Source: a virus (taxonomy: Duplodnaviria > Heunggongvirae > Uroviricota > Caudoviricetes). Taken from it: DNA of 64,000 nucleotides. Every line of letters begins with the position of its first letter. Position 1 is the first letter of the stretch. The stretch lies in the IMG/VR virus record IMGVR_UViG_3300046522_000748, one strand, 5' to 3'. This document shows, piece by piece, positions 7,512 through 44,568 of this stretch. The notes beneath the pieces are model-generated. The model ran no database searches. It worked only from the letters and a program-made list of their open reading frames with translations, and was not told the DNA's origin. Made by a program: the position numbers and the translations under genes.

Positions 7512-7804
7512 GCGTTGCTGGCCTCGACTGCTGTGGTTTTTTCCATGTCGATTTCAGTGTACCCGTATTCGCAGACCCAGTTTTTGCAATAGTTTTTATA
7601 CCACCGCAGGGCTCTGAATTTGTTGGGCACCGTCTTTTCGTAGGAGCGTTGATAGTCACTGCGCACTTTCTCGTGCAGCAATGCCACGGAGTAATTTTCA
7701 CGACCGAACCAGAAATCACGACCACTGATGCAGGAGAAGCTTACGTCATAGATCTCAATGCCGTCTTCAACTTCCACAAACAGAATAATGTTATCAGCGC
7801 TCAT
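7508..7804 (-). CDS. Hypothetical protein
   Basis: 98 aa, GGAGG SD. Confidence 0.7.
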   Translation of the reverse strand: MSADNIILFVEVEDGIEIYDVSFSCISGRDFWFGRENYSVALLHEKVRSDYQRSYEKTVPNKFRALRWYKNYCKNWVCEYGYTEIDMEKTTAVEASNA

Positions 7805-7828
7805 CGTGTGCCTCCATGTGATGTGGCC

Positions 7829-7867
7829 ATAGTAGCAATCCTTGCTACAATTGTCAATACCAATGAC
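7829..7867 (-). promoter_or_regulatory. Sigma70 promoter with operator
   Basis: TTGACA-N17-TACTAT; GTCA-N7-TGAC at 7853-7867. Confidence 0.85.
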
Positions 7868-7944
7868 ATTTATGTTTCCTTCTATACGTGCTCCGGTTTC
7901 TTATTGTTAACCGAACAAAAAGGCCATTATTTTTGATAATGATA

Positions 7945-7973
7945 TTGACACATGCAATTCTTTGCCATATTAT
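7945..7973 (+). promoter_or_regulatory. Sigma70 promoter
   Basis: TTGACA-N17-TATTAT. Confidence 0.8.
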
Positions 7974-8003
7974 ATGCCACATACCGAATATGAGAGAGAA
8001 GAG

Positions 8004-8591
8004 ATGAGCCAGACCAAAGAATTCAGCTTCACCCTGTCCCGCGCCCACAAAATTGCTGAGCGCTTGCAGCGCCATGTCACTGTGTTGGGCGGTCAGGTGG
8101 GCGAACTTTCGCGGCCAGTGACTCTGTTCTCGGCTGATCAAAATGCTGAAGTTGATGCTCGCCTGACAAAAATTGTCGGTATTCGTGAAAAAATCGAGTT
8201 GGTGAATTCACTGCGCACCACCGTGCGTATCAAGATTGCCGAGAAAAACGCTCAGATCGGTCAGCATGCGCTGCTGACTGAGCAGAAGGATGTTATTGCG
8301 CACATGGCGCGTGTGAGCCGTCTGCGCATGGACATCATTTCCAGCAACAGTTACGGCAAGCCAGTAGAGCAGCTGGCAACCCAGTTGGATCGACTGGCTC
8401 AGTCGAAATCCACCGATGGCGTCTCGACCAGAGTTATTGCCGACTCGTTCATTGCGGATCTGGATGCGCAGATCACTCAACTGACTGCGAAGCTTGATAA
8501 GCTGAACGATCAGGTGGCCGACAACAACGCGTCGAACAAGATCAGCGTGGAAATTCCGCAGGATCTGGCCGCAGAACTGGGTCTGGTATAA
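8004..8591 (+). CDS. All-helical coiled-coil protein, DIP1984-like
   Basis: N-terminal LSRAHKIAERL, central KIAEKNAQIG..LL and C-terminal LDAQITQL..KLDKLNDQV..NN..KISVEI resemble the DIP1984 family pattern (by eye). Confidence 0.6.
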   Translation: MSQTKEFSFTLSRAHKIAERLQRHVTVLGGQVGELSRPVTLFSADQNAEVDARLTKIVGIREKIELVNSLRTTVRIKIAEKNAQIGQHALLTEQKDVIAHMARVSRLRMDIISSNSYGKPVEQLATQLDRLAQSKSTDGVSTRVIADSFIADLDAQITQLTAKLDKLNDQVADNNASNKISVEIPQDLAAELGLV

Positions 8592-8596
8592 ATTCT

Positions 8597-8850
8597 CAGT
8601 GGGTTCGCTTGAAAACAGCGATAGGGCGAACCCTGCTGGCGCAAGCCAGTGACTGGACTACGAAACGCTGATAGGGGCAACCAAAATCGGAAGTGGCCTT
8701 GAGCCACTTAAGCAGTCTTAGGCTATTAAAACCCATTGCTCTTACCAGGAGCTGTGACTTGTTAGAACGCCAGACGCATCCTTTCTGTATTTAGTGAAAA
8801 GTGACTTGTCATTTTTGCCCCTGGCCACCCAATGGGTGGCCTTTTCGTTT
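8597..8850 (+). ncRNA. Putative structured ncRNA or structured 3' region ending in an intrinsic terminator
   Basis: Multiple stems, GCAA and CUUG tetraloops, complementary loops CAGCG/CGCTG, terminator GGCCACCC-AAT-GGGTGGCC-TTTT. Confidence 0.6.
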
Positions 8851-8974
8851 CTGGTGTTTGTGATTTTTTGCACGTCAGGCGTCAAGTGACCTGCATAAGC
8901 AAATCACCTGAAAATTACTCGATGAGGTGGTAGTGATGAGAGAGCTAATTGCTGGGTGATGCGGTGGGGGGGGG

Positions 8975-9394
8975 TTATTGAGCCTTGGTGTTCAGTCTCT
9001 GCCATTCGGCATACGCCTCATCGCCCTGTCTCCAGGCATCCAATTCCTCCTTGCGCTCCATCATGTCGGCGAACGAGTTTTCGTCGAGCAGAAAGTCCAA
9101 ATGATCTGGGAGCATGCGCTCAGGCGTAATCGTTTCGTATCCTCCGCCCTTATAAACCCACGAGTAGTCCTCTTTCGGGTAGCGCTCATCCCAAAGGCGA
9201 TTCATAATTGAAAATATTCTTTTTGATCGCTTGCTTTCTGGTCGAGCTATCAGCATCAATGCGTGTCTGGCTATTCGCATTTGACCAATTTTAGAGTTTG
9301 GATTGATTTTGATAAAGCACATCTCATTTAGTGCTTGTATGAACATCTCAACTTGTTTTTTTTCGTCTTCTTTATGCTGATTAGGATTTTGCAT
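8975..9394 (-). CDS. Hypothetical protein
   Basis: 139-aa ORF. Confidence 0.65.
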   Translation of the reverse strand: MQNPNQHKEDEKKQVEMFIQALNEMCFIKINPNSKIGQMRIARHALMLIARPESKRSKRIFSIMNRLWDERYPKEDYSWVYKGGGYETITPERMLPDHLDFLLDENSFADMMERKEELDAWRQGDEAYAEWQRLNTKAQ

Positions 9395-27661: not shown

Positions 27662-29662
27662 TTAGAACTTTACGTTCAGAACACGGTTGATCGAACCTTT
27701 CACACGCAACAGGATTTCATTACGCTTCACGACAGAGAAGCCCAGGCCGCTCAATTGGTTGTCGTTGGCCGCAACTTTCATCTGCGCCGATACCACTTCG
27801 AACACTTTGCGGTGTGGTGTCAGTTCCTCACGCAGGTATTCGTTGTAGAAACCACGAGTGCCTTCTTCGTTTGCGCAGCCCTTGAGCATAAAGAACACAT
27901 GCTCATGACCGTTGGCTTGATCATTCCAGAAGTTTGGCGAACGGGTGATCAAATCAACCGGTGTCCAGTCTTCGGTTTTGATGCCCCACTGCTCGTTAGA
28001 TGCACCACCAGCAGTCATACCTTCGACGGTGATGACTCCCGCCGCGTCAACATTGATGTAGCCAACGGTGACACGTTTGTCATTACCCAGCGCTGTCGGA
28101 TGCGCGAAGCTGTAGATTTTGCCCAACACCTCAACTTCAATATCGAAGCCGACGTTATTGGTGGAGCGCTGACACCAGTTGTGAACCTGAATTTCGTAGC
28201 GGCCTTTTTTGATGTCGCGCTGGCGAGTCCAGAAAATGTTTTCAACCGGGTCAGTCGTGTTGTGCGCGTGACCGGCGTTCATGTCCACATCGAGTTGCGC
28301 ACCGAAATTGCTGCGCTCGCGGAACCAGCAGCGGTTGCGACCATCGCTTACGCTCAGGTCGAGGTCGTCACCGTTACGCCACGACAGGGACACTCGAACA
28401 TCACCGTCAACCTTGCCGCCTGCACGCTTCACCCGCTCACGGATCGAATCGGTAACTTCACCCACATACGACCACGAAAATGCGTTATCCCATTTGAACA
28501 ACGGTTTTGCATCGGTGTGAACCGGGGCTACCAGACTCACGAAGTTGGTGCGGTGTTCGTTCTTCACAAACGCTTCAACCGTGTCCGCTTTCGGCAGCAC
28601 TTTCTGGAGGAAATCTTTGATCGAGATTTCTTCAACGTCGTTCAGAACCGGAACGGCTTTCTTGGTTGGCTTCACCGCGTCGAACGCGCCGCCCAGCAAT
28701 TTCTTTTTCACAGTGCCATCAACGAAAAGCACGTTGTTAACCGAGATGTCTTCGCGCACGGCGTAACGACGTGCCAGCGAATCTTCCAGGCCCAGTTTCT
28801 CGACCAGCTTTTGGGCTTCGTCGATCATCTTCTGGGTGACCAGTGCTTTCGAACGCTTGTAGTTGGTGCCCGAAGTTTTGTCTTCGAATTTCTTCACGGC
28901 AACTTCAAGATCAGTGCCTTCGGTAATATCCGAGAGCAGAGTGCCGATGACGGTGCCGAGAATACGGGTATTTTTCTTGCCGTTTTCCCACAGGAAGGCT
29001 TCACGCTCCTGGTCGGTTGTCAGTTTGGCGTACTGGCGCTTCAGTTTGCGCAGCAGGTCAATCGCCCACTTGTATTCTGGGCCTTTGTACAGCGAGTCCT
29101 GGTCGATCAGTTCGGCAACGATTTCGATTGCGTCGTCGCTGATTTCTGTGATCGAGCGCATCAGGCCTTGAACGTCGTTTTTACGTTCGCCGATGTAGTT
29201 GGTTTCGTTGTTTTTCCACTGGAAAATCACAGGCACTTTGGCGTGGAAGTGATTCCAGATTTCGCCTTTGGTGTTGGTTTGTTCAGCGCCGTAAGCTGGT
29301 TCGCTGACGATGAAGTGCTGTTCGATTGGCAGTGCCTTCACAAACGCCGCCATGGAATCGGCAATCGTCTGGAACAGCGCATCTGCAACAGTCACGTCCC
29401 ACACGGACAGCATTTCGCCGTTTTTCATGTACACGACGGCGCCAATGTTTTTCACGAAATTGCGGCAGCACGAGCAGTCGTATTCGGTACGGGTGCGGAA
29501 AATTGGGTTGGTGCCTTCAGGGAACGACGCAAGGTAATGCGCCCACAGTTCGTCACCGGTTGCACTCACAACGAACACGTTGTCTTTTTTGCCATCGTCT
29601 TTCTGGATGATGGAGTTGAATGCGTTGTGTACCGCTTTACCAAAAACAGAAAAATCGCTCAT
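27662..29662 (-). CDS. Large phage-type protein with a Cys motif and a YfaP/DUF2135-like domain
   Basis: YDCSCCRNF; VSLSWRNGDDLDL...LDVDMN...PVENIFW. Confidence 0.8.
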   Translation of the reverse strand: MSDFSVFGKAVHNAFNSIIQKDDGKKDNVFVVSATGDELWAHYLASFPEGTNPIFRTRTEYDCSCCRNFVKNIGAVVYMKNGEMLSVWDVTVADALFQTIADSMAAFVKALPIEQHFIVSEPAYGAEQTNTKGEIWNHFHAKVPVIFQWKNNETNYIGERKNDVQGLMRSITEISDDAIEIVAELIDQDSLYKGPEYKWAIDLLRKLKRQYAKLTTDQEREAFLWENGKKNTRILGTVIGTLLSDITEGTDLEVAVKKFEDKTSGTNYKRSKALVTQKMIDEAQKLVEKLGLEDSLARRYAVREDISVNNVLFVDGTVKKKLLGGAFDAVKPTKKAVPVLNDVEEISIKDFLQKVLPKADTVEAFVKNEHRTNFVSLVAPVHTDAKPLFKWDNAFSWSYVGEVTDSIRERVKRAGGKVDGDVRVSLSWRNGDDLDLSVSDGRNRCWFRERSNFGAQLDVDMNAGHAHNTTDPVENIFWTRQRDIKKGRYEIQVHNWCQRSTNNVGFDIEVEVLGKIYSFAHPTALGNDKRVTVGYINVDAAGVITVEGMTAGGASNEQWGIKTEDWTPVDLITRSPNFWNDQANGHEHVFFMLKGCANEEGTRGFYNEYLREELTPHRKVFEVVSAQMKVAANDNQLSGLGFSVVKRNEILLRVKGSINRVLNVKF

Positions 29663-42221: not shown

Positions 42222-42503
42222 ATGATGAAAGATGCTCAATTATTGGATCAAATGATGCGCTGTAATCATGCTTTGGTAACCGGCGCTTTCGGTATCACCA
42301 GCGGTCTCCTAACTTTATGGAATCATTTCCAGCATACAGTAGATGAGCAAGCCCTATCGCAGGGTTTGCTCATTGGTATTTTTTCTTTGTCCATAGGCGC
42401 TTTTGCTTTTGGTTTGGCGCACTACACGAAATTAAAAGCGCAGAAACAACTCGAAATACCATACCACGACAAAAGATGGACAGGTGTAAGAAATGAGTAT
42501 TGA
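42222..42503 (+). CDS. Two-TM membrane protein (array member 3)
   Basis: AGGA SD; LDQM before TM1. Confidence 0.65.
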   Translation: MMKDAQLLDQMMRCNHALVTGAFGITSGLLTLWNHFQHTVDEQALSQGLLIGIFSLSIGAFAFGLAHYTKLKAQKQLEIPYHDKRWTGVRNEY

Positions 42504-42790: not shown

Positions 42791-43144
42791 ATGATTGCTG
42801 CCTATTGTGTTGTTTCGAAGACCCCCTCTGTAGCAGACTCCAATATTTTTGAGGTCGCATATGCCGACGCTGAAACTCAACGCACGGGGGTGTTTAAGAT
42901 CAGCCTTCCGAAAGGTCGTATAGTTACAGATAGAGCTGTTGAGGTTGTTATGCAATTTCGCAACCATCATACAACACTTTTTGACACCGCATTACTTGGA
43001 AGGCTGATGGAGGCGTCGAGAATTAAGCTAGACCTACGCAGGCCCCACTGGCCCCATTCAGACTTGCTTGCAAGGCTGGAAAAATTGCTAGCTCAGAGTT
43101 TCGAAAGCCGAGTGGCACTCACCGATCATGAATGCAGCAGGTGA
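42791..43144 (+). CDS. Hypothetical protein
   Basis: ORF in the operon; start uncertain. Confidence 0.5.
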   Translation: MIAAYCVVSKTPSVADSNIFEVAYADAETQRTGVFKISLPKGRIVTDRAVEVVMQFRNHHTTLFDTALLGRLMEASRIKLDLRRPHWPHSDLLARLEKLLAQSFESRVALTDHECSR

Positions 43145-44568
43145 TGAATCGTGTCGTATCCATCGCCTGTTTGATGAGCAATTGCCTCTACCATATAGCT
43201 GACCCATTCCCGGCCATAAGCTTCGATCATCAAATGAGCCGTCATCTGTAGTACTGGCAGTGTTGAAGAATCAAACGCCCAGCGTCCCAGCATTTCAGGC
43301 GTAACTTCGGTGGTCGTCCCCCGAACAAACCCTGGACTGGCGATTTTGTGGCAAAGGTAATTGGCGGCAAAATAATGCATCACCGACTCACTGCAAAATT
43401 CCACCTCTCCTGAGGCGTTGGTTTGCATCAGTTGCGGCGAATGAAGTACCTCTTTCAAAAAGAGCTTGGCGTTTTCCTTGTCAGCTTCGTCCAGCATCGA
43501 CTCAGCCATGATCGCTTCACAACGCTTCACGGTGTTTGGTTCTCGGGTACTGACGCCAGCATCAGCATACCACCCAAAAGTTCGATACGCTTCAGCTCTG
43601 TCCAGAAGCAGGTTAAATGCCATTGCGCTCAGCGCGCCTAGACTCTGGCTGTACGAAAGCTTTAGTCGCTTTTGAACAGCATGGTTTCGCTTACCCAGCA
43701 GCTCCTCCATAAAGCGTTTGAGCAGCAGGCCCTTTGAATTACAGACTGGGATATTTTTCAAAGTGAGGTTCAGGATGATGTTGATCCAGAACGGCTGGCT
43801 CGCCAGCATTTTGAGCTTCTTGTCGTCAGCAATGAGCCCTATCAGATGGCGGTATCGATCATTGGTCGCAGGTTGGCCTTTGTCGAAATCACTGATAAAC
43901 AGCGACAAATGCTGAAGCTCAAAAGGCAGAAGGTATTTGACCTTAAATCCTTCAAAGCCCGCACCTATAGCTAGGCGCGAAGTGGCCAGCGTTTGGTGGT
44001 TGCCTGGCCAGCTTTTCACGACTTCTCTCTGCTCGCGATTCAGCGCATCGATACCATCAAGGATTAGCAGGATGTCCCCTCTTTGCACCCAAGCCACTAC
44101 CGCTGCAATGGTTTCAGACACAATGGTTGCAGGCGCGTTTTTTCTGTTTGCGAGCAACTGATGGGCTGTATGCACGACGGCGCTCATCAGATCCTTCGAC
44201 GGCTCAAAGCACTCGATAGGCAACTGACTGAGATCCAGGTAAATCGGCAGGCGGTTTTCCAGGTGTTCTGGCAAGGCAGCAGTGAGGCCGGAGGAAAGTC
44301 GATGTGCCAGCCCTTTGGCTTGCATCGTTTTTCCTGATTCTTTATCGCCCACAAGGAGGATCTGACGACTTGCGCCTAGCGCTGGGATCAGACCAATACC
44401 TTTTGTCGAGTTGTATTCGTCACCGACAACAGGGTGTACCCACGTCGTGCTCAGTTGACTCAAGCTCAATGAGGTGTTTTTCTCGCAAAACTCCCGTTGG
44501 GCAGCAAGGAACGCTCGTAGCGCATGATCATCCCAAAGGGAGTGCTGGCGAGGCGAAGAGTCAGTCAC
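43126..44568 (-). CDS. NACHT-family P-loop NTPase (stand-alone)
   Basis: Walker A ILLVGDKESGKT, LPIYLDL, Walker B ILLILDGIDA, LATSR, L.PF, EF..ES...YFAA. Confidence 0.8.
   Translation of the reverse strand: MTDSSPRQHSLWDDHALRAFLAAQREFCEKNTSLSLSQLSTTWVHPVVGDEYNSTKGIGLIPALGASRQILLVGDKESGKTMQAKGLAHRLSSGLTAALPEHLENRLPIYLDLSQLPIECFEPSKDLMSAVVHTAHQLLANRKNAPATIVSETIAAVVAWVQRGDILLILDGIDALNREQREVVKSWPGNHQTLATSRLAIGAGFEGFKVKYLLPFELQHLSLFISDFDKGQPATNDRYRHLIGLIADDKKLKMLASQPFWINIILNLTLKNIPVCNSKGLLLKRFMEELLGKRNHAVQKRLKLSYSQSLGALSAMAFNLLLDRAEAYRTFGWYADAGVSTREPNTVKRCEAIMAESMLDEADKENAKLFLKEVLHSPQLMQTNASGEVEFCSESVMHYFAANYLCHKIASPGFVRGTTTEVTPEMLGRWAFDSSTLPVLQMTAHLMIEAYGREWVSYMVEAIAHQTGDGYDTIHHLLHS

Follow-up and report, generated by a model that had tools for sequence, protein, structure and literature searches.

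Does a small helical protein of mobile elements come with an RNA partner of its own, encoded on the same message? The question is raised by one locus in a 64,000-nucleotide stretch of DNA (the window), IMG/VR record IMGVR_UViG_3300046522_000748, which is classified there among the Caudoviricetes. On the plus strand, the gene for a 195-amino-acid protein (P0001; 8004-8591) and the non-coding stretch that follows it (8592-8851) form one promoter-to-terminator unit. The initial annotation, made from the letters of the DNA, proposed a module of a protein and a non-coding RNA (ncRNA), or a structured switch or ribozyme. Our comparison supports the module, as homologous genes down to ~25% protein identity keep a covarying RNA directly downstream; the ribozyme and switch alternatives find no support of their own. 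Because the RNA always follows the gene of the helical protein, the pair looks like a previously undescribed RNA-protein module. We lean, with modest conviction, towards the reading that RNA and protein act together as a dedicated pair on mobile elements.

The transcription unit and the linkage of gene and RNA

The initial annotation had described an isolated plus-strand unit with a promoter common to gene and RNA, and this description holds. The promoter site at 7945-7973 is followed by only one terminator-like site in the region (8823-8841, with a T-run after it), and since both flanking genes lie on the opposite strand, the unit stands alone. We scanned four lineages for such signals: the window and three homologous loci (L009, L030 and L026; lineages are given by L numbers throughout). 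In each of them, a promoter-like site ends 31-32 nucleotides (nt) upstream of the ATG and a single terminator lies 3' of the RNA, and no strong internal plus-strand promoter was found between the two. The sites lie at 7945-7973 in the window, 3942-3970 in L009, 2942-2970 in L030 and 2942-2969 in L026; the boxes read TTGAC[AC]-17-TATTAT in the first three and, more weakly, TTGCCT-16-TATACT in L026. The distance to the ATG is constant despite protein identities of 27-56% and spacers that are otherwise unalignable. The RNA begins 1-6 nt past the stop codon. As first noted, no plus-strand open reading frame (ORF) lies between stop and terminator; we found none of at least 40 amino acids (aa) in 8592-8850.

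A gene-free gap of 250-470 nt follows the stop codon in all 14 lineages fetched, and within the clade of the window it can be aligned over its full length. Here, the RNA is more conserved than its gene: nucleotide identity lies at 73-83% in the RNA, 63-69% in the gene and ~60% in the upstream spacer, at a protein identity of 52-59%. A covariance model (CM) built from five close copies only (R1) finds one copy per locus, directly 3' of the stop codon, and no second copy in the window. In seven of nine distant homologues outside its training set (25-38% protein identity), the same model finds full-length matches immediately 3' of the gene, with E-values of 1e-7 to 1e-36 and scores of 124 bits in L030, 70 in L034, 58 in L024, 36 in L038, 35 in L025, 31 in L026 and 29 in L036. 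In the Pseudomonas megaplasmids pMPPla107 and pPL1 and in FeN3W (3.05 Mb), there is one RNA match each, abutting the sole protein match of each. The RNA therefore always adjoins the protein gene, and the two are inherited together one to one while their neighbours change, on host elements that span 32-61% GC.

Other searches for the RNA returned nothing of this kind. A blastn search with the 1-kb unit found no match in the phage and plasmid collections, and three RNA-motif pattern scans of IMG/VR gave chance matches inside coding sequence or matches that the model did not support. In GTDB genomes and in JGI metagenomes, a 21-base pattern of P1 and its loop L1 (both described below) gave a single match each, a chance one, located within an 803-aa ORF that belongs to the same metagenome-assembled genome. 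Within the window, a model of the 5' domain (R2) matches weakly at 42312-42380 on the minus strand (12.8 bits, E 0.78), which we take as chance.

Several lines of evidence bear on the non-coding character of the stretch and on its strand. Variable columns of the RNA show no codon period (30/32/31 by codon phase, vs 106/74/154 in the gene), and the RNA carries six indels of 1-2 nt. The counts of G-U and A-C over all detectable hairpins (37 vs 32) gave no answer as to the strand, and the Alifold consensus was compared for this reason; it reaches -63.6 kcal/mol on the plus strand and -53.6 kcal/mol on the minus strand. The T-run of the terminator and its conserved tail are likewise read on the plus strand.

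Contigs from soil and rice paddy metatranscriptomes (three studies) cover 8611-8825, 8626-8847 and 8630-8840 at depths of 10-37, vs depths of 2-5 for contigs of the gene. One RNA-library contig spans 8151 to 8773 and thus crosses the stop codon. The contigs of the RNA stop between 8825 and 8847. We read this as no more than a weak hint of transcription of the region and of accumulation of its RNA part, because contigs are a poor guide to level and carry neither ends nor strand. The contig starts at 8611-8630 were considered as 5' ends and rejected, since they are probably assembly breaks in the shared P1.

The fold of the RNA

The dense pairing seen at first is borne out by folding, as the 259-nt stretch folds at -92.6 kcal/mol and beats all 200 of its dinucleotide shuffles (z -3.45). 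Comparison between lineages shows a conserved, covarying, non-coding fold on the plus strand, which is modelled from sequence as two domains (Table 1). In the predicted 5' domain, the helices P0, P1 and P2 meet around a three-way junction, and L1, the loop of P1, pairs with the strand after the GARA junction. The predicted 3' domain is closed by a long-range helix (P3), contains P4, P5, P6 and two U/G-rich boxes, and is followed by the terminator. In a model alignment of 12 sequences, 92.4% of the cells are paired and 54 of the 66 pairs changed on both sides. The covariation score is 0.465, vs 0.165 for shuffles (0 of 500 reach the observed value) and 0.03-0.14 for slid partners. Among the checks suggested by the initial annotation were one for covariation downstream of homologous genes, which is positive both in these pairs and in the distant homologues recovered by R1, and one against Rfam, which assigned no family.

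Table 1. Features of the unit and of the predicted RNA fold, with positions in the window.
Feature	Position	Strand	Evidence
Sigma-70-type promoter, TTGACA-17-TATTAT	7945-7973	+	11 of 12 consensus positions matched
Gene of the 195-aa helical protein P0001, unnamed family	8004-8591	+	Stop-free translation
Conserved structured non-coding RNA, ~255 nt	8592-8851	+	Match to R1, 290.8 bits; sole copy in the window
P0, helix closing the three-way junction with P1 and P2	8597-8600 with 8652-8655	+	Anchored permutation test
P1, hairpin with 13-nt loop L1 (GAAA-PKa-AUA)	8601-8610 with 8624-8633	+	7 of 8 model pairs compensatory; 98.7% of cells paired
PKa, segment of L1 that forms the 5' strand of the pseudoknot (or kissing pair)	8616-8620	+	Anchored test
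P2, hairpin with tetraloop GCAA (in relatives GNRA, UUCG or other)	8635-8650	+	5 of 6 pairs compensatory; 100% paired
Junction RNGARA (8656-8665), then PKb (8666-8670), partner of PKa	8656-8670	+	GARA anchor directly 5' of the complementary strand in 10 lineages
P3, long-range helix closing the 3' domain	8674-8680 with 8815-8821	+	6 of 6 pairs changed on both sides; 92-94% paired
P4, variable hairpin, lacking in some lineages	8693-8707	+	5 of 5 pairs compensatory where present
P5, long stem (GCNGUCUUAGG... with ...CCNGACGC) with inner hairpin at 8739-8752	8712-8729 with 8762-8777	+	15 pairs: 5 invariant, 8 compensatory; 94% paired
U/G-rich box GUGACUUGU, two copies	8754-8762 and 8801-8809	+	Seen directly
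P6, small hairpin 5' of the terminator	8799-8814	+	6 pairs changed on both sides; 81% paired; moderate support
Intrinsic terminator hairpin and conserved tail UUUUCGUUUC	8823-8851	+	Terminator scan; 6 of 8 pairs compensatory

As the model alignment is fitted to the structure, the tertiary pair was tested with scripts that make no use of that alignment. In addition, L026 and L036 are wrongly placed when the 5' domain is aligned by MAFFT or by the CM, and the pseudoknot and P0 were therefore tested by anchored scripts. For the pseudoknot, the anchors were the AUA end of the loop and the GARA junction, in eight lineages. Cognate strands form on average 5.6 of 6 pairs, vs 2.6 for non-cognate strands, and only one of 40,320 permutations, the true one, reaches the observed sum. 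The pairing between the loop at 8616-8620 and the strand at 8666-8670, which had been proposed from complementarity in the window, is thus backed by strong covariation in eight different forms (PKa/PKb): CAGCG/CGCUG, CAGCA/UGCUG, UCUUAA/UUAAGA, GCCCG/CGGGC, CUUGGG/CCCAAG, GUGAGG/CCUCAC, GCCUGA/UCGGGC and UUGGGG/CCCCAA. L030, which lies outside this test, lengthens CAGCG/CGCUG to CCAGCG/CGCUGG. Beside the predicted pseudoknot, the unpaired nucleotides GAAA, AUA and ACGAAAC are conserved.

In the corresponding test for P0, with the 5' flank set against the strand after P2, the cognate combinations beat the swapped ones, and 7 of 362,880 permutations reach the cognate sum. P0 takes the place of an outer 5' helix in R1 (UCAGU with GCUGA), which was dropped because it competes with the pseudoknot and is lost in distant lineages. 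P1 is present in all lineages despite unrelated stem sequences. In every lineage, an automatic hairpin search recovers P1 (with a loop of 12-15 nt), then P2, and then a strand complementary to the loop of P1.

Most of the helices that were first proposed from the window have their counterpart in this fold. The stem 8601-08/8626-33 (P1), the GCAA hairpin 8636-49 (P2) and the AAGTGGC/GCCACTT stem 8691-8709 (P4) have comparative support, as do, more weakly, the stems at 8738-52 and 8797-8816. The long-range pairing of 8673-80 with 8815-22, offered as an alternative, covaries in all six pairs. Two further proposals did not survive. GACTG (8651-55) and CAGTC (8713-17) are complementary, but the conserved fold pairs 8652-55 with 8597-8600 in P0 and 8712-18 with 8772-77 in P5. 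Likewise, CAGTGGGTT (8597-8605) and AACCCATTG (8730-38) are complementary, but their pairing competes with P1 and is lost in relatives. P5 is the most conserved block of sequence over all lineages. The repeat GTGACTTGT noted at 8754 and 8801 is present and is kept in relatives as a U/G-rich motif, with (A/U)YUUGU-type repeats in L030, L034, L036, L024 and L026.

Two side observations concern the edges of this fold. On the 3' side of the terminator stem, UUUCGUUUCUGG (8842-8853 in the window) is also conserved in L025, L038, L034 and L009; these lineages otherwise share little, and the conservation exceeds what a plain U-tail needs. In L013 (1079-1371) and L032 (3625-4090), the gap after the gene opens with two hairpins and may hold a diverged form of the RNA, and L032 keeps a block, GCUUGUCUUAAG, that resembles the P5 motif. 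Both lineages were left out of the pairing tests, as the assignment of the pseudoknot is ambiguous there (a GGCGCC palindrome; CGGG/CCCG).

The initial annotation could not place the RNA in a named Rfam family, and our searches agree at gathering as well as permissive thresholds. Rfam 15 gave no match on the whole window at the gathering threshold. At E up to 10, positions 8500-8950 matched only MicA (22 bits; threshold 41) and a CRISPR repeat (15 bits), and in 10 further lineages the RNA had no match at E up to 1. We found no paper or database family that describes the RNA or the protein, with one preprint on the coevolutionary mining of ncRNA-protein pairs (bioRxiv 10.64898/2026.09.22.753630) lying outside the comparison.

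The protein family and its genomic homes

The protein half of the module has no name in the databases either. P0001 has no significant family in Pfam, PHROG, NCBIfam or PADLOC, where low-scoring coiled-coil matches below the curated cut-offs were all that appeared. When 54 family members were scanned singly (E up to 0.01-1), they shared no common Pfam or NCBIfam family and showed no RuvC domain in the Pfam scans; PADLOC and PHROGs returned coiled-coil noise, with LmuB at E 2e-4 for one homologue. The family is of uniform size: of the 335 clusters that an exhaustive profile search of metagenomes gave with an E-value cut-off of 1e-3, nearly all measure 185-210 aa and are matched over their entire length; a word-index search found just seven protein clusters. 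N82 and N175 are invariant, and L11, R13, H15, K16, R20, R75, G86, L91, D169 and G193 are near-invariant; the strongly conserved polar positions are R13, H15, K16, R20, R75, N82, D169 and N175. On sequence grounds, R13, H15, K16, R20 and R75 likely form a surface that contacts the RNA.

An AlphaFold model of P0001 (AF2 pLDDT 83) shows a bundle of helices and, at the N and C termini, short strands. The initial annotation had called the protein DIP1984-like, which stands at the level of the predicted fold and not at the level of sequence. The closest fold in the PDB is 3kdq, a Corynebacterium diphtheriae protein of unknown function, which we take to be DIP1984. It comes first both in Foldseek (probability 0.99, TM 0.54/0.67) and in an exhaustive VIA search (Z 12.3, root-mean-square deviation 3.6 Å, 146/152 residues; next row Z 9.7), with a Z that is only moderately above the background for helical bundles. 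Sequence identity is 11%, 3kdq is absent from the matches of PDB profile searches with the protein family, and no DIP1984 model of NCBIfam or Pfam matches P0001 or the 54 members (E up to 0.01-1). Since 3kdq tops the structure searches while no such model matches, the DIP1984 likeness would be one of fold only. Atlas neighbours of the protein are hypothetical proteins of ~190 aa, mostly labelled viral, and in one neighbour cluster 15% of the members carry DUF6847. In cultured phages, tblastn found no match for P0001 or for the family-central P0046, and in plasmids none for P0046; a protein-pattern scan of IMG/VR found no relatives.

The named family members reside on three Pseudomonas megaplasmids: pMPPla107 (972 kb), pPL1 of P. 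silesiensis (1.17 Mb) and the plasmid of Pseudomonas sp. FeN3W (910 kb). On pMPPla107 (NZ_CP031226.1), the protein is WP_005742258.1 and the RNA lies at 159,415-159,673. The window's own protein lies on a contig of 1.14 Mb, and DNA near-identical to the window is present in rhizosphere and soil runs. Known genes are extremely scarce in the window, where about 9 of the 88 ORFs have a Pfam family (among them HNH, GIY-YIG, NACHT, HTH_3, Phage_ProQ_C_like, HAD_SAK_2, DUF4419 and DUF2807). We infer that the window is part of a megaplasmid-like replicon.

Other genes of the window deserve a brief mention. Two domains encoded there, one of a ProQ-like RNA chaperone and one of the RNA-repair HAD type, could bear on the RNA biology of the element. 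A 480-aa protein (43129-44568, minus strand) has a NACHT NTPase just under the Pfam cut-off (26.1 vs 26.7 bits) and is possibly an anti-phage NLR-like protein. Full-length relatives (~40% identity) of a 666-aa protein (27665-29662, minus strand) occur in Clostridioides difficile and Shinella, on plasmids of 117-137 kb, and relatives of ~29-30% identity on plasmids of Bacillus, Vagococcus and Paenibacillus; the Pseudomonas megaplasmids have none.

The genes next to the module differ in almost every lineage. In pMPPla107 and FeN3W, its neighbourhood comprises ssb genes, an MvaT gene and a gene for a lytic transglycosylase near Dot/Icm genes. The gene directly 3' of the RNA in L030 (3880-5133) encodes an MPTase-PolyVal domain, as found in ArdC-type anti-restriction proteins of conjugative plasmids. 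In L043 (pMPPla107, 149,000-153,000), genes for an endonuclease, an RtcB RNA ligase and a cyclic-phosphate-processing receiver-domain protein lie ~6-10 kb upstream of the module, with an AbiEii-type toxin gene further upstream.

The function of the module

How might the two halves work together? We picture an autonomous two-part module of mobile elements, consisting of a promoter, a short leader, the 195-aa ORF, the ~255-nt RNA and an intrinsic terminator. The cognate ncRNA would be transcribed on the same message, directly past the stop codon of the helical protein, and would outlive the coding part of the transcript. It may then work with its protein as a bound partner, a scaffold or a regulator. 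Because the module lies among ssb, MvaT and ArdC-like genes on conjugative megaplasmids, it may act in establishment or maintenance after transfer.

A number of points weigh against this proposal. Physical contact between protein and RNA is something that we infer; the protein is near neutral (median isoelectric point 6.3) and has no recognisable RNA-binding domain. The GC-rich lineages L013 and L032 keep the gap and a similar layout of hairpins, yet neither R1 nor R2 matches them. The pair counts come from an alignment that favours the structure to which it was fitted, and the contrast in depth comes from assembled contigs, a poor measure of RNA level that gives neither 5' ends nor strand. 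Finally, an RNA that regulates only its own mRNA would give an equally tight linkage.

The strongest competitor holds that the protein is merely co-expressed and that the RNA is a trans-acting regulator or decoy derived from the 3' untranslated region (3' UTR). Such an RNA would be cut or terminated from the mRNA and would base-pair through its U/G-rich boxes or titrate a host RNA-binding protein, e.g. Hfq. Promoter and terminator are indeed common to RNA and ORF, the (A/U)YUUGU boxes are conserved and either single-stranded or in loops, and contig depth over the RNA exceeds that over the gene. The 3' module, with its small hairpin, U-rich stretch and U-tailed terminator, is weakly MicA-like (sub-threshold, 22 bits, E 0.38). 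However, a ~255-nt RNA with a predicted pseudoknotted three-way junction and at least five covarying helices goes far beyond known small RNAs (sRNAs) from 3' UTRs. Strict co-inheritance with one protein family, in hosts of 32-61% GC, would be unexpected if the protein were irrelevant, and a host-specific target is unlikely to be kept over such different elements. We therefore regard a trans-acting RNA of this kind as unlikely, though a serious contender.

Distinctly less probable is a purely cis-acting 3' UTR, which would protect the message from exonucleases or serve as an autoregulatory site for the protein and would have no function apart from the mRNA. That the RNA begins 1-6 nt past the stop codon and is never found away from the gene fits such a role. 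There is also precedent, since autoregulatory pseudoknots are established for other nucleic-acid-binding proteins, e.g. in the leader of phage T4 gene 32. On the other hand, a terminator hairpin suffices for plain stabilisation, which has no need of conserved unpaired motifs or of a covarying pseudoknot. Conservation of the RNA moreover exceeds that of the coding sequence, and contigs of the RNA part are deeper than those of the coding part, a weak argument.

Two further explanations fare worse. A self-cleaving ribozyme, or an antitoxin-like RNA that restrains a toxic helical protein (type III-like, with the gene order reversed), is very improbable. Such an RNA could account for the compact, autonomous module, for the defence-type genes nearby (AbiEii in pMPPla107, a KAP NTPase in L032, NACHT in the window) and for the conserved unpaired GAAA, AUA and ACGAAAC beside the pseudoknot, as in small ribozymes. 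However, no Rfam ribozyme or type III antitoxin matches even at E of 1-10, tandem repeats are absent from 7800-9000, and the protein is without a PADLOC match above noise and, in the predicted model, without a nuclease-like fold.

The position of the module among ssb and MvaT genes, near Dot/Icm genes and beside ArdC-like genes also raised the idea that the element acts as single-stranded DNA (ssDNA), namely as a single-strand initiation site or ssDNA promoter (Frpo/ssi) in conjugative entry; these contexts, including the lytic transglycosylase gene, resemble leading or establishment regions. Structured ssDNA elements are known from such regions (PMC12672017, PMC11541004), and an ssDNA promoter is formed by one long hairpin that restores the -35 and -10 boxes and precedes an operon; a screen for such promoters used -75 kcal/mol (PMC12672017). 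We give this idea the least credence of all: the conserved fold is multi-branched and pseudoknotted rather than one long hairpin that rebuilds -35 and -10 boxes, the DNA fold is branched and at -48 kcal/mol falls short of -75 kcal/mol, and the stretch ends in a terminator. In the window, L009 and L034, it faces a convergent gene and thus has nothing to drive. ssDNA promoters moreover act on the template strand, whereas here the strand with the better fold is the sense one for the co-oriented ssb genes. Finally, the stretch is present in RNA libraries.

A more elaborate form of the dedicated RNA-protein pair can be imagined. Because covariation cannot separate pairing within a molecule from pairing between molecules, a self-assembling ribonucleoprotein (RNP) keeps a small share of the probability. 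The pairing of L1 with the junction may then be intermolecular, so that several copies of the RNA would build a ring or cage with the helical protein as its cargo, by analogy with phi29 pRNA, ROOL and GOLLD. If true, megaplasmids and other mobile elements would have a new self-assembling RNP that acts in the establishment of the element in a new host, e.g. in anti-defence or in the protection of incoming DNA.

What makes the pair worth pursuing is, first, that both halves are unannotated, the RNA being absent from Rfam and the protein from Pfam, NCBIfam and PHROGs, and that their pairing is nevertheless kept down to ~25% protein identity over elements of 32% to 61% GC. Megaplasmids of the pMPPla107 kind consist to ~90% of genes of unknown function. 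The experimentally tractable pMPPla107 is itself among the carriers, and a pair that lies beside ssb, H-NS-like and ArdC-like genes offers a handle on the establishment or maintenance of such elements. With its size, its predicted pseudoknot and its invariant unpaired nucleotides, the RNA is also well suited to structural work and a promising place to look for a new mode of RNA-protein recognition.

Comparison with known systems

The module shares traits with several known systems. Like Frpo and ssi sites, its RNA stretch is structured and conserved and lies between genes of conjugative plasmids, in the company of ssb and anti-restriction-type genes; unlike them, it is branched, rebuilds no -35 and -10 boxes, ends in a terminator and lies downstream of a gene, often facing a convergent one. 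With type III toxin-antitoxin systems (ToxIN, CptIN, TenpIN), it has in common a protein and an ncRNA under one promoter on plasmids and phages. There, however, a tandem RNA array lies upstream of an endoribonuclease toxin, whereas here a single, non-repetitive RNA lies downstream, and since it has no tandem repeats it is not a type III antitoxin array. The protein has no Pfam or PADLOC match to a ToxN/AbiQ-like endoribonuclease, and its predicted fold is an all-helical bundle. That fold is shared with the DIP1984-type structure 3kdq, with no relation at the level of sequence; to our knowledge, the DIP1984-type family has no known function and no known RNA partner.

The Hfq-dependent sRNAs from 3' UTRs of enterobacteria, such as CpxQ, SroC and DapZ, are likewise co-transcribed with an upstream ORF, share the intrinsic terminator of the mRNA and carry a U-rich stretch and a small hairpin before it. 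The RNA described here differs in being 3-4 times longer, in its predicted pseudoknotted three-way junction and covarying long-range helices, and in its link to a single protein family on elements that are unrelated. Being encoded on phage or plasmid DNA, with a complex covarying fold and a short, covarying complementarity between a loop and a strand, it recalls the large ncRNAs of mobile elements that assemble themselves by kissing loops, namely phi29 pRNA, ROOL and GOLLD. Our RNA has no Rfam match to these in sequence or structure, is smaller than ROOL or GOLLD and, unlike them, is tied to a specific small protein gene.

The OMEGA systems of TnpB and IscB differ from the module in their protein, which here is a predicted 195-aa helical bundle without RuvC or HNH, and in that we see no transposon ends, no evident guide segment and no Rfam match for the RNA. 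In their layout, the two are alike: a structured RNA (150-250 nt; reRNA or omegaRNA) lies at or past the 3' end of the partner gene on the same transcript, and the pair resides on mobile DNA and is inherited together.

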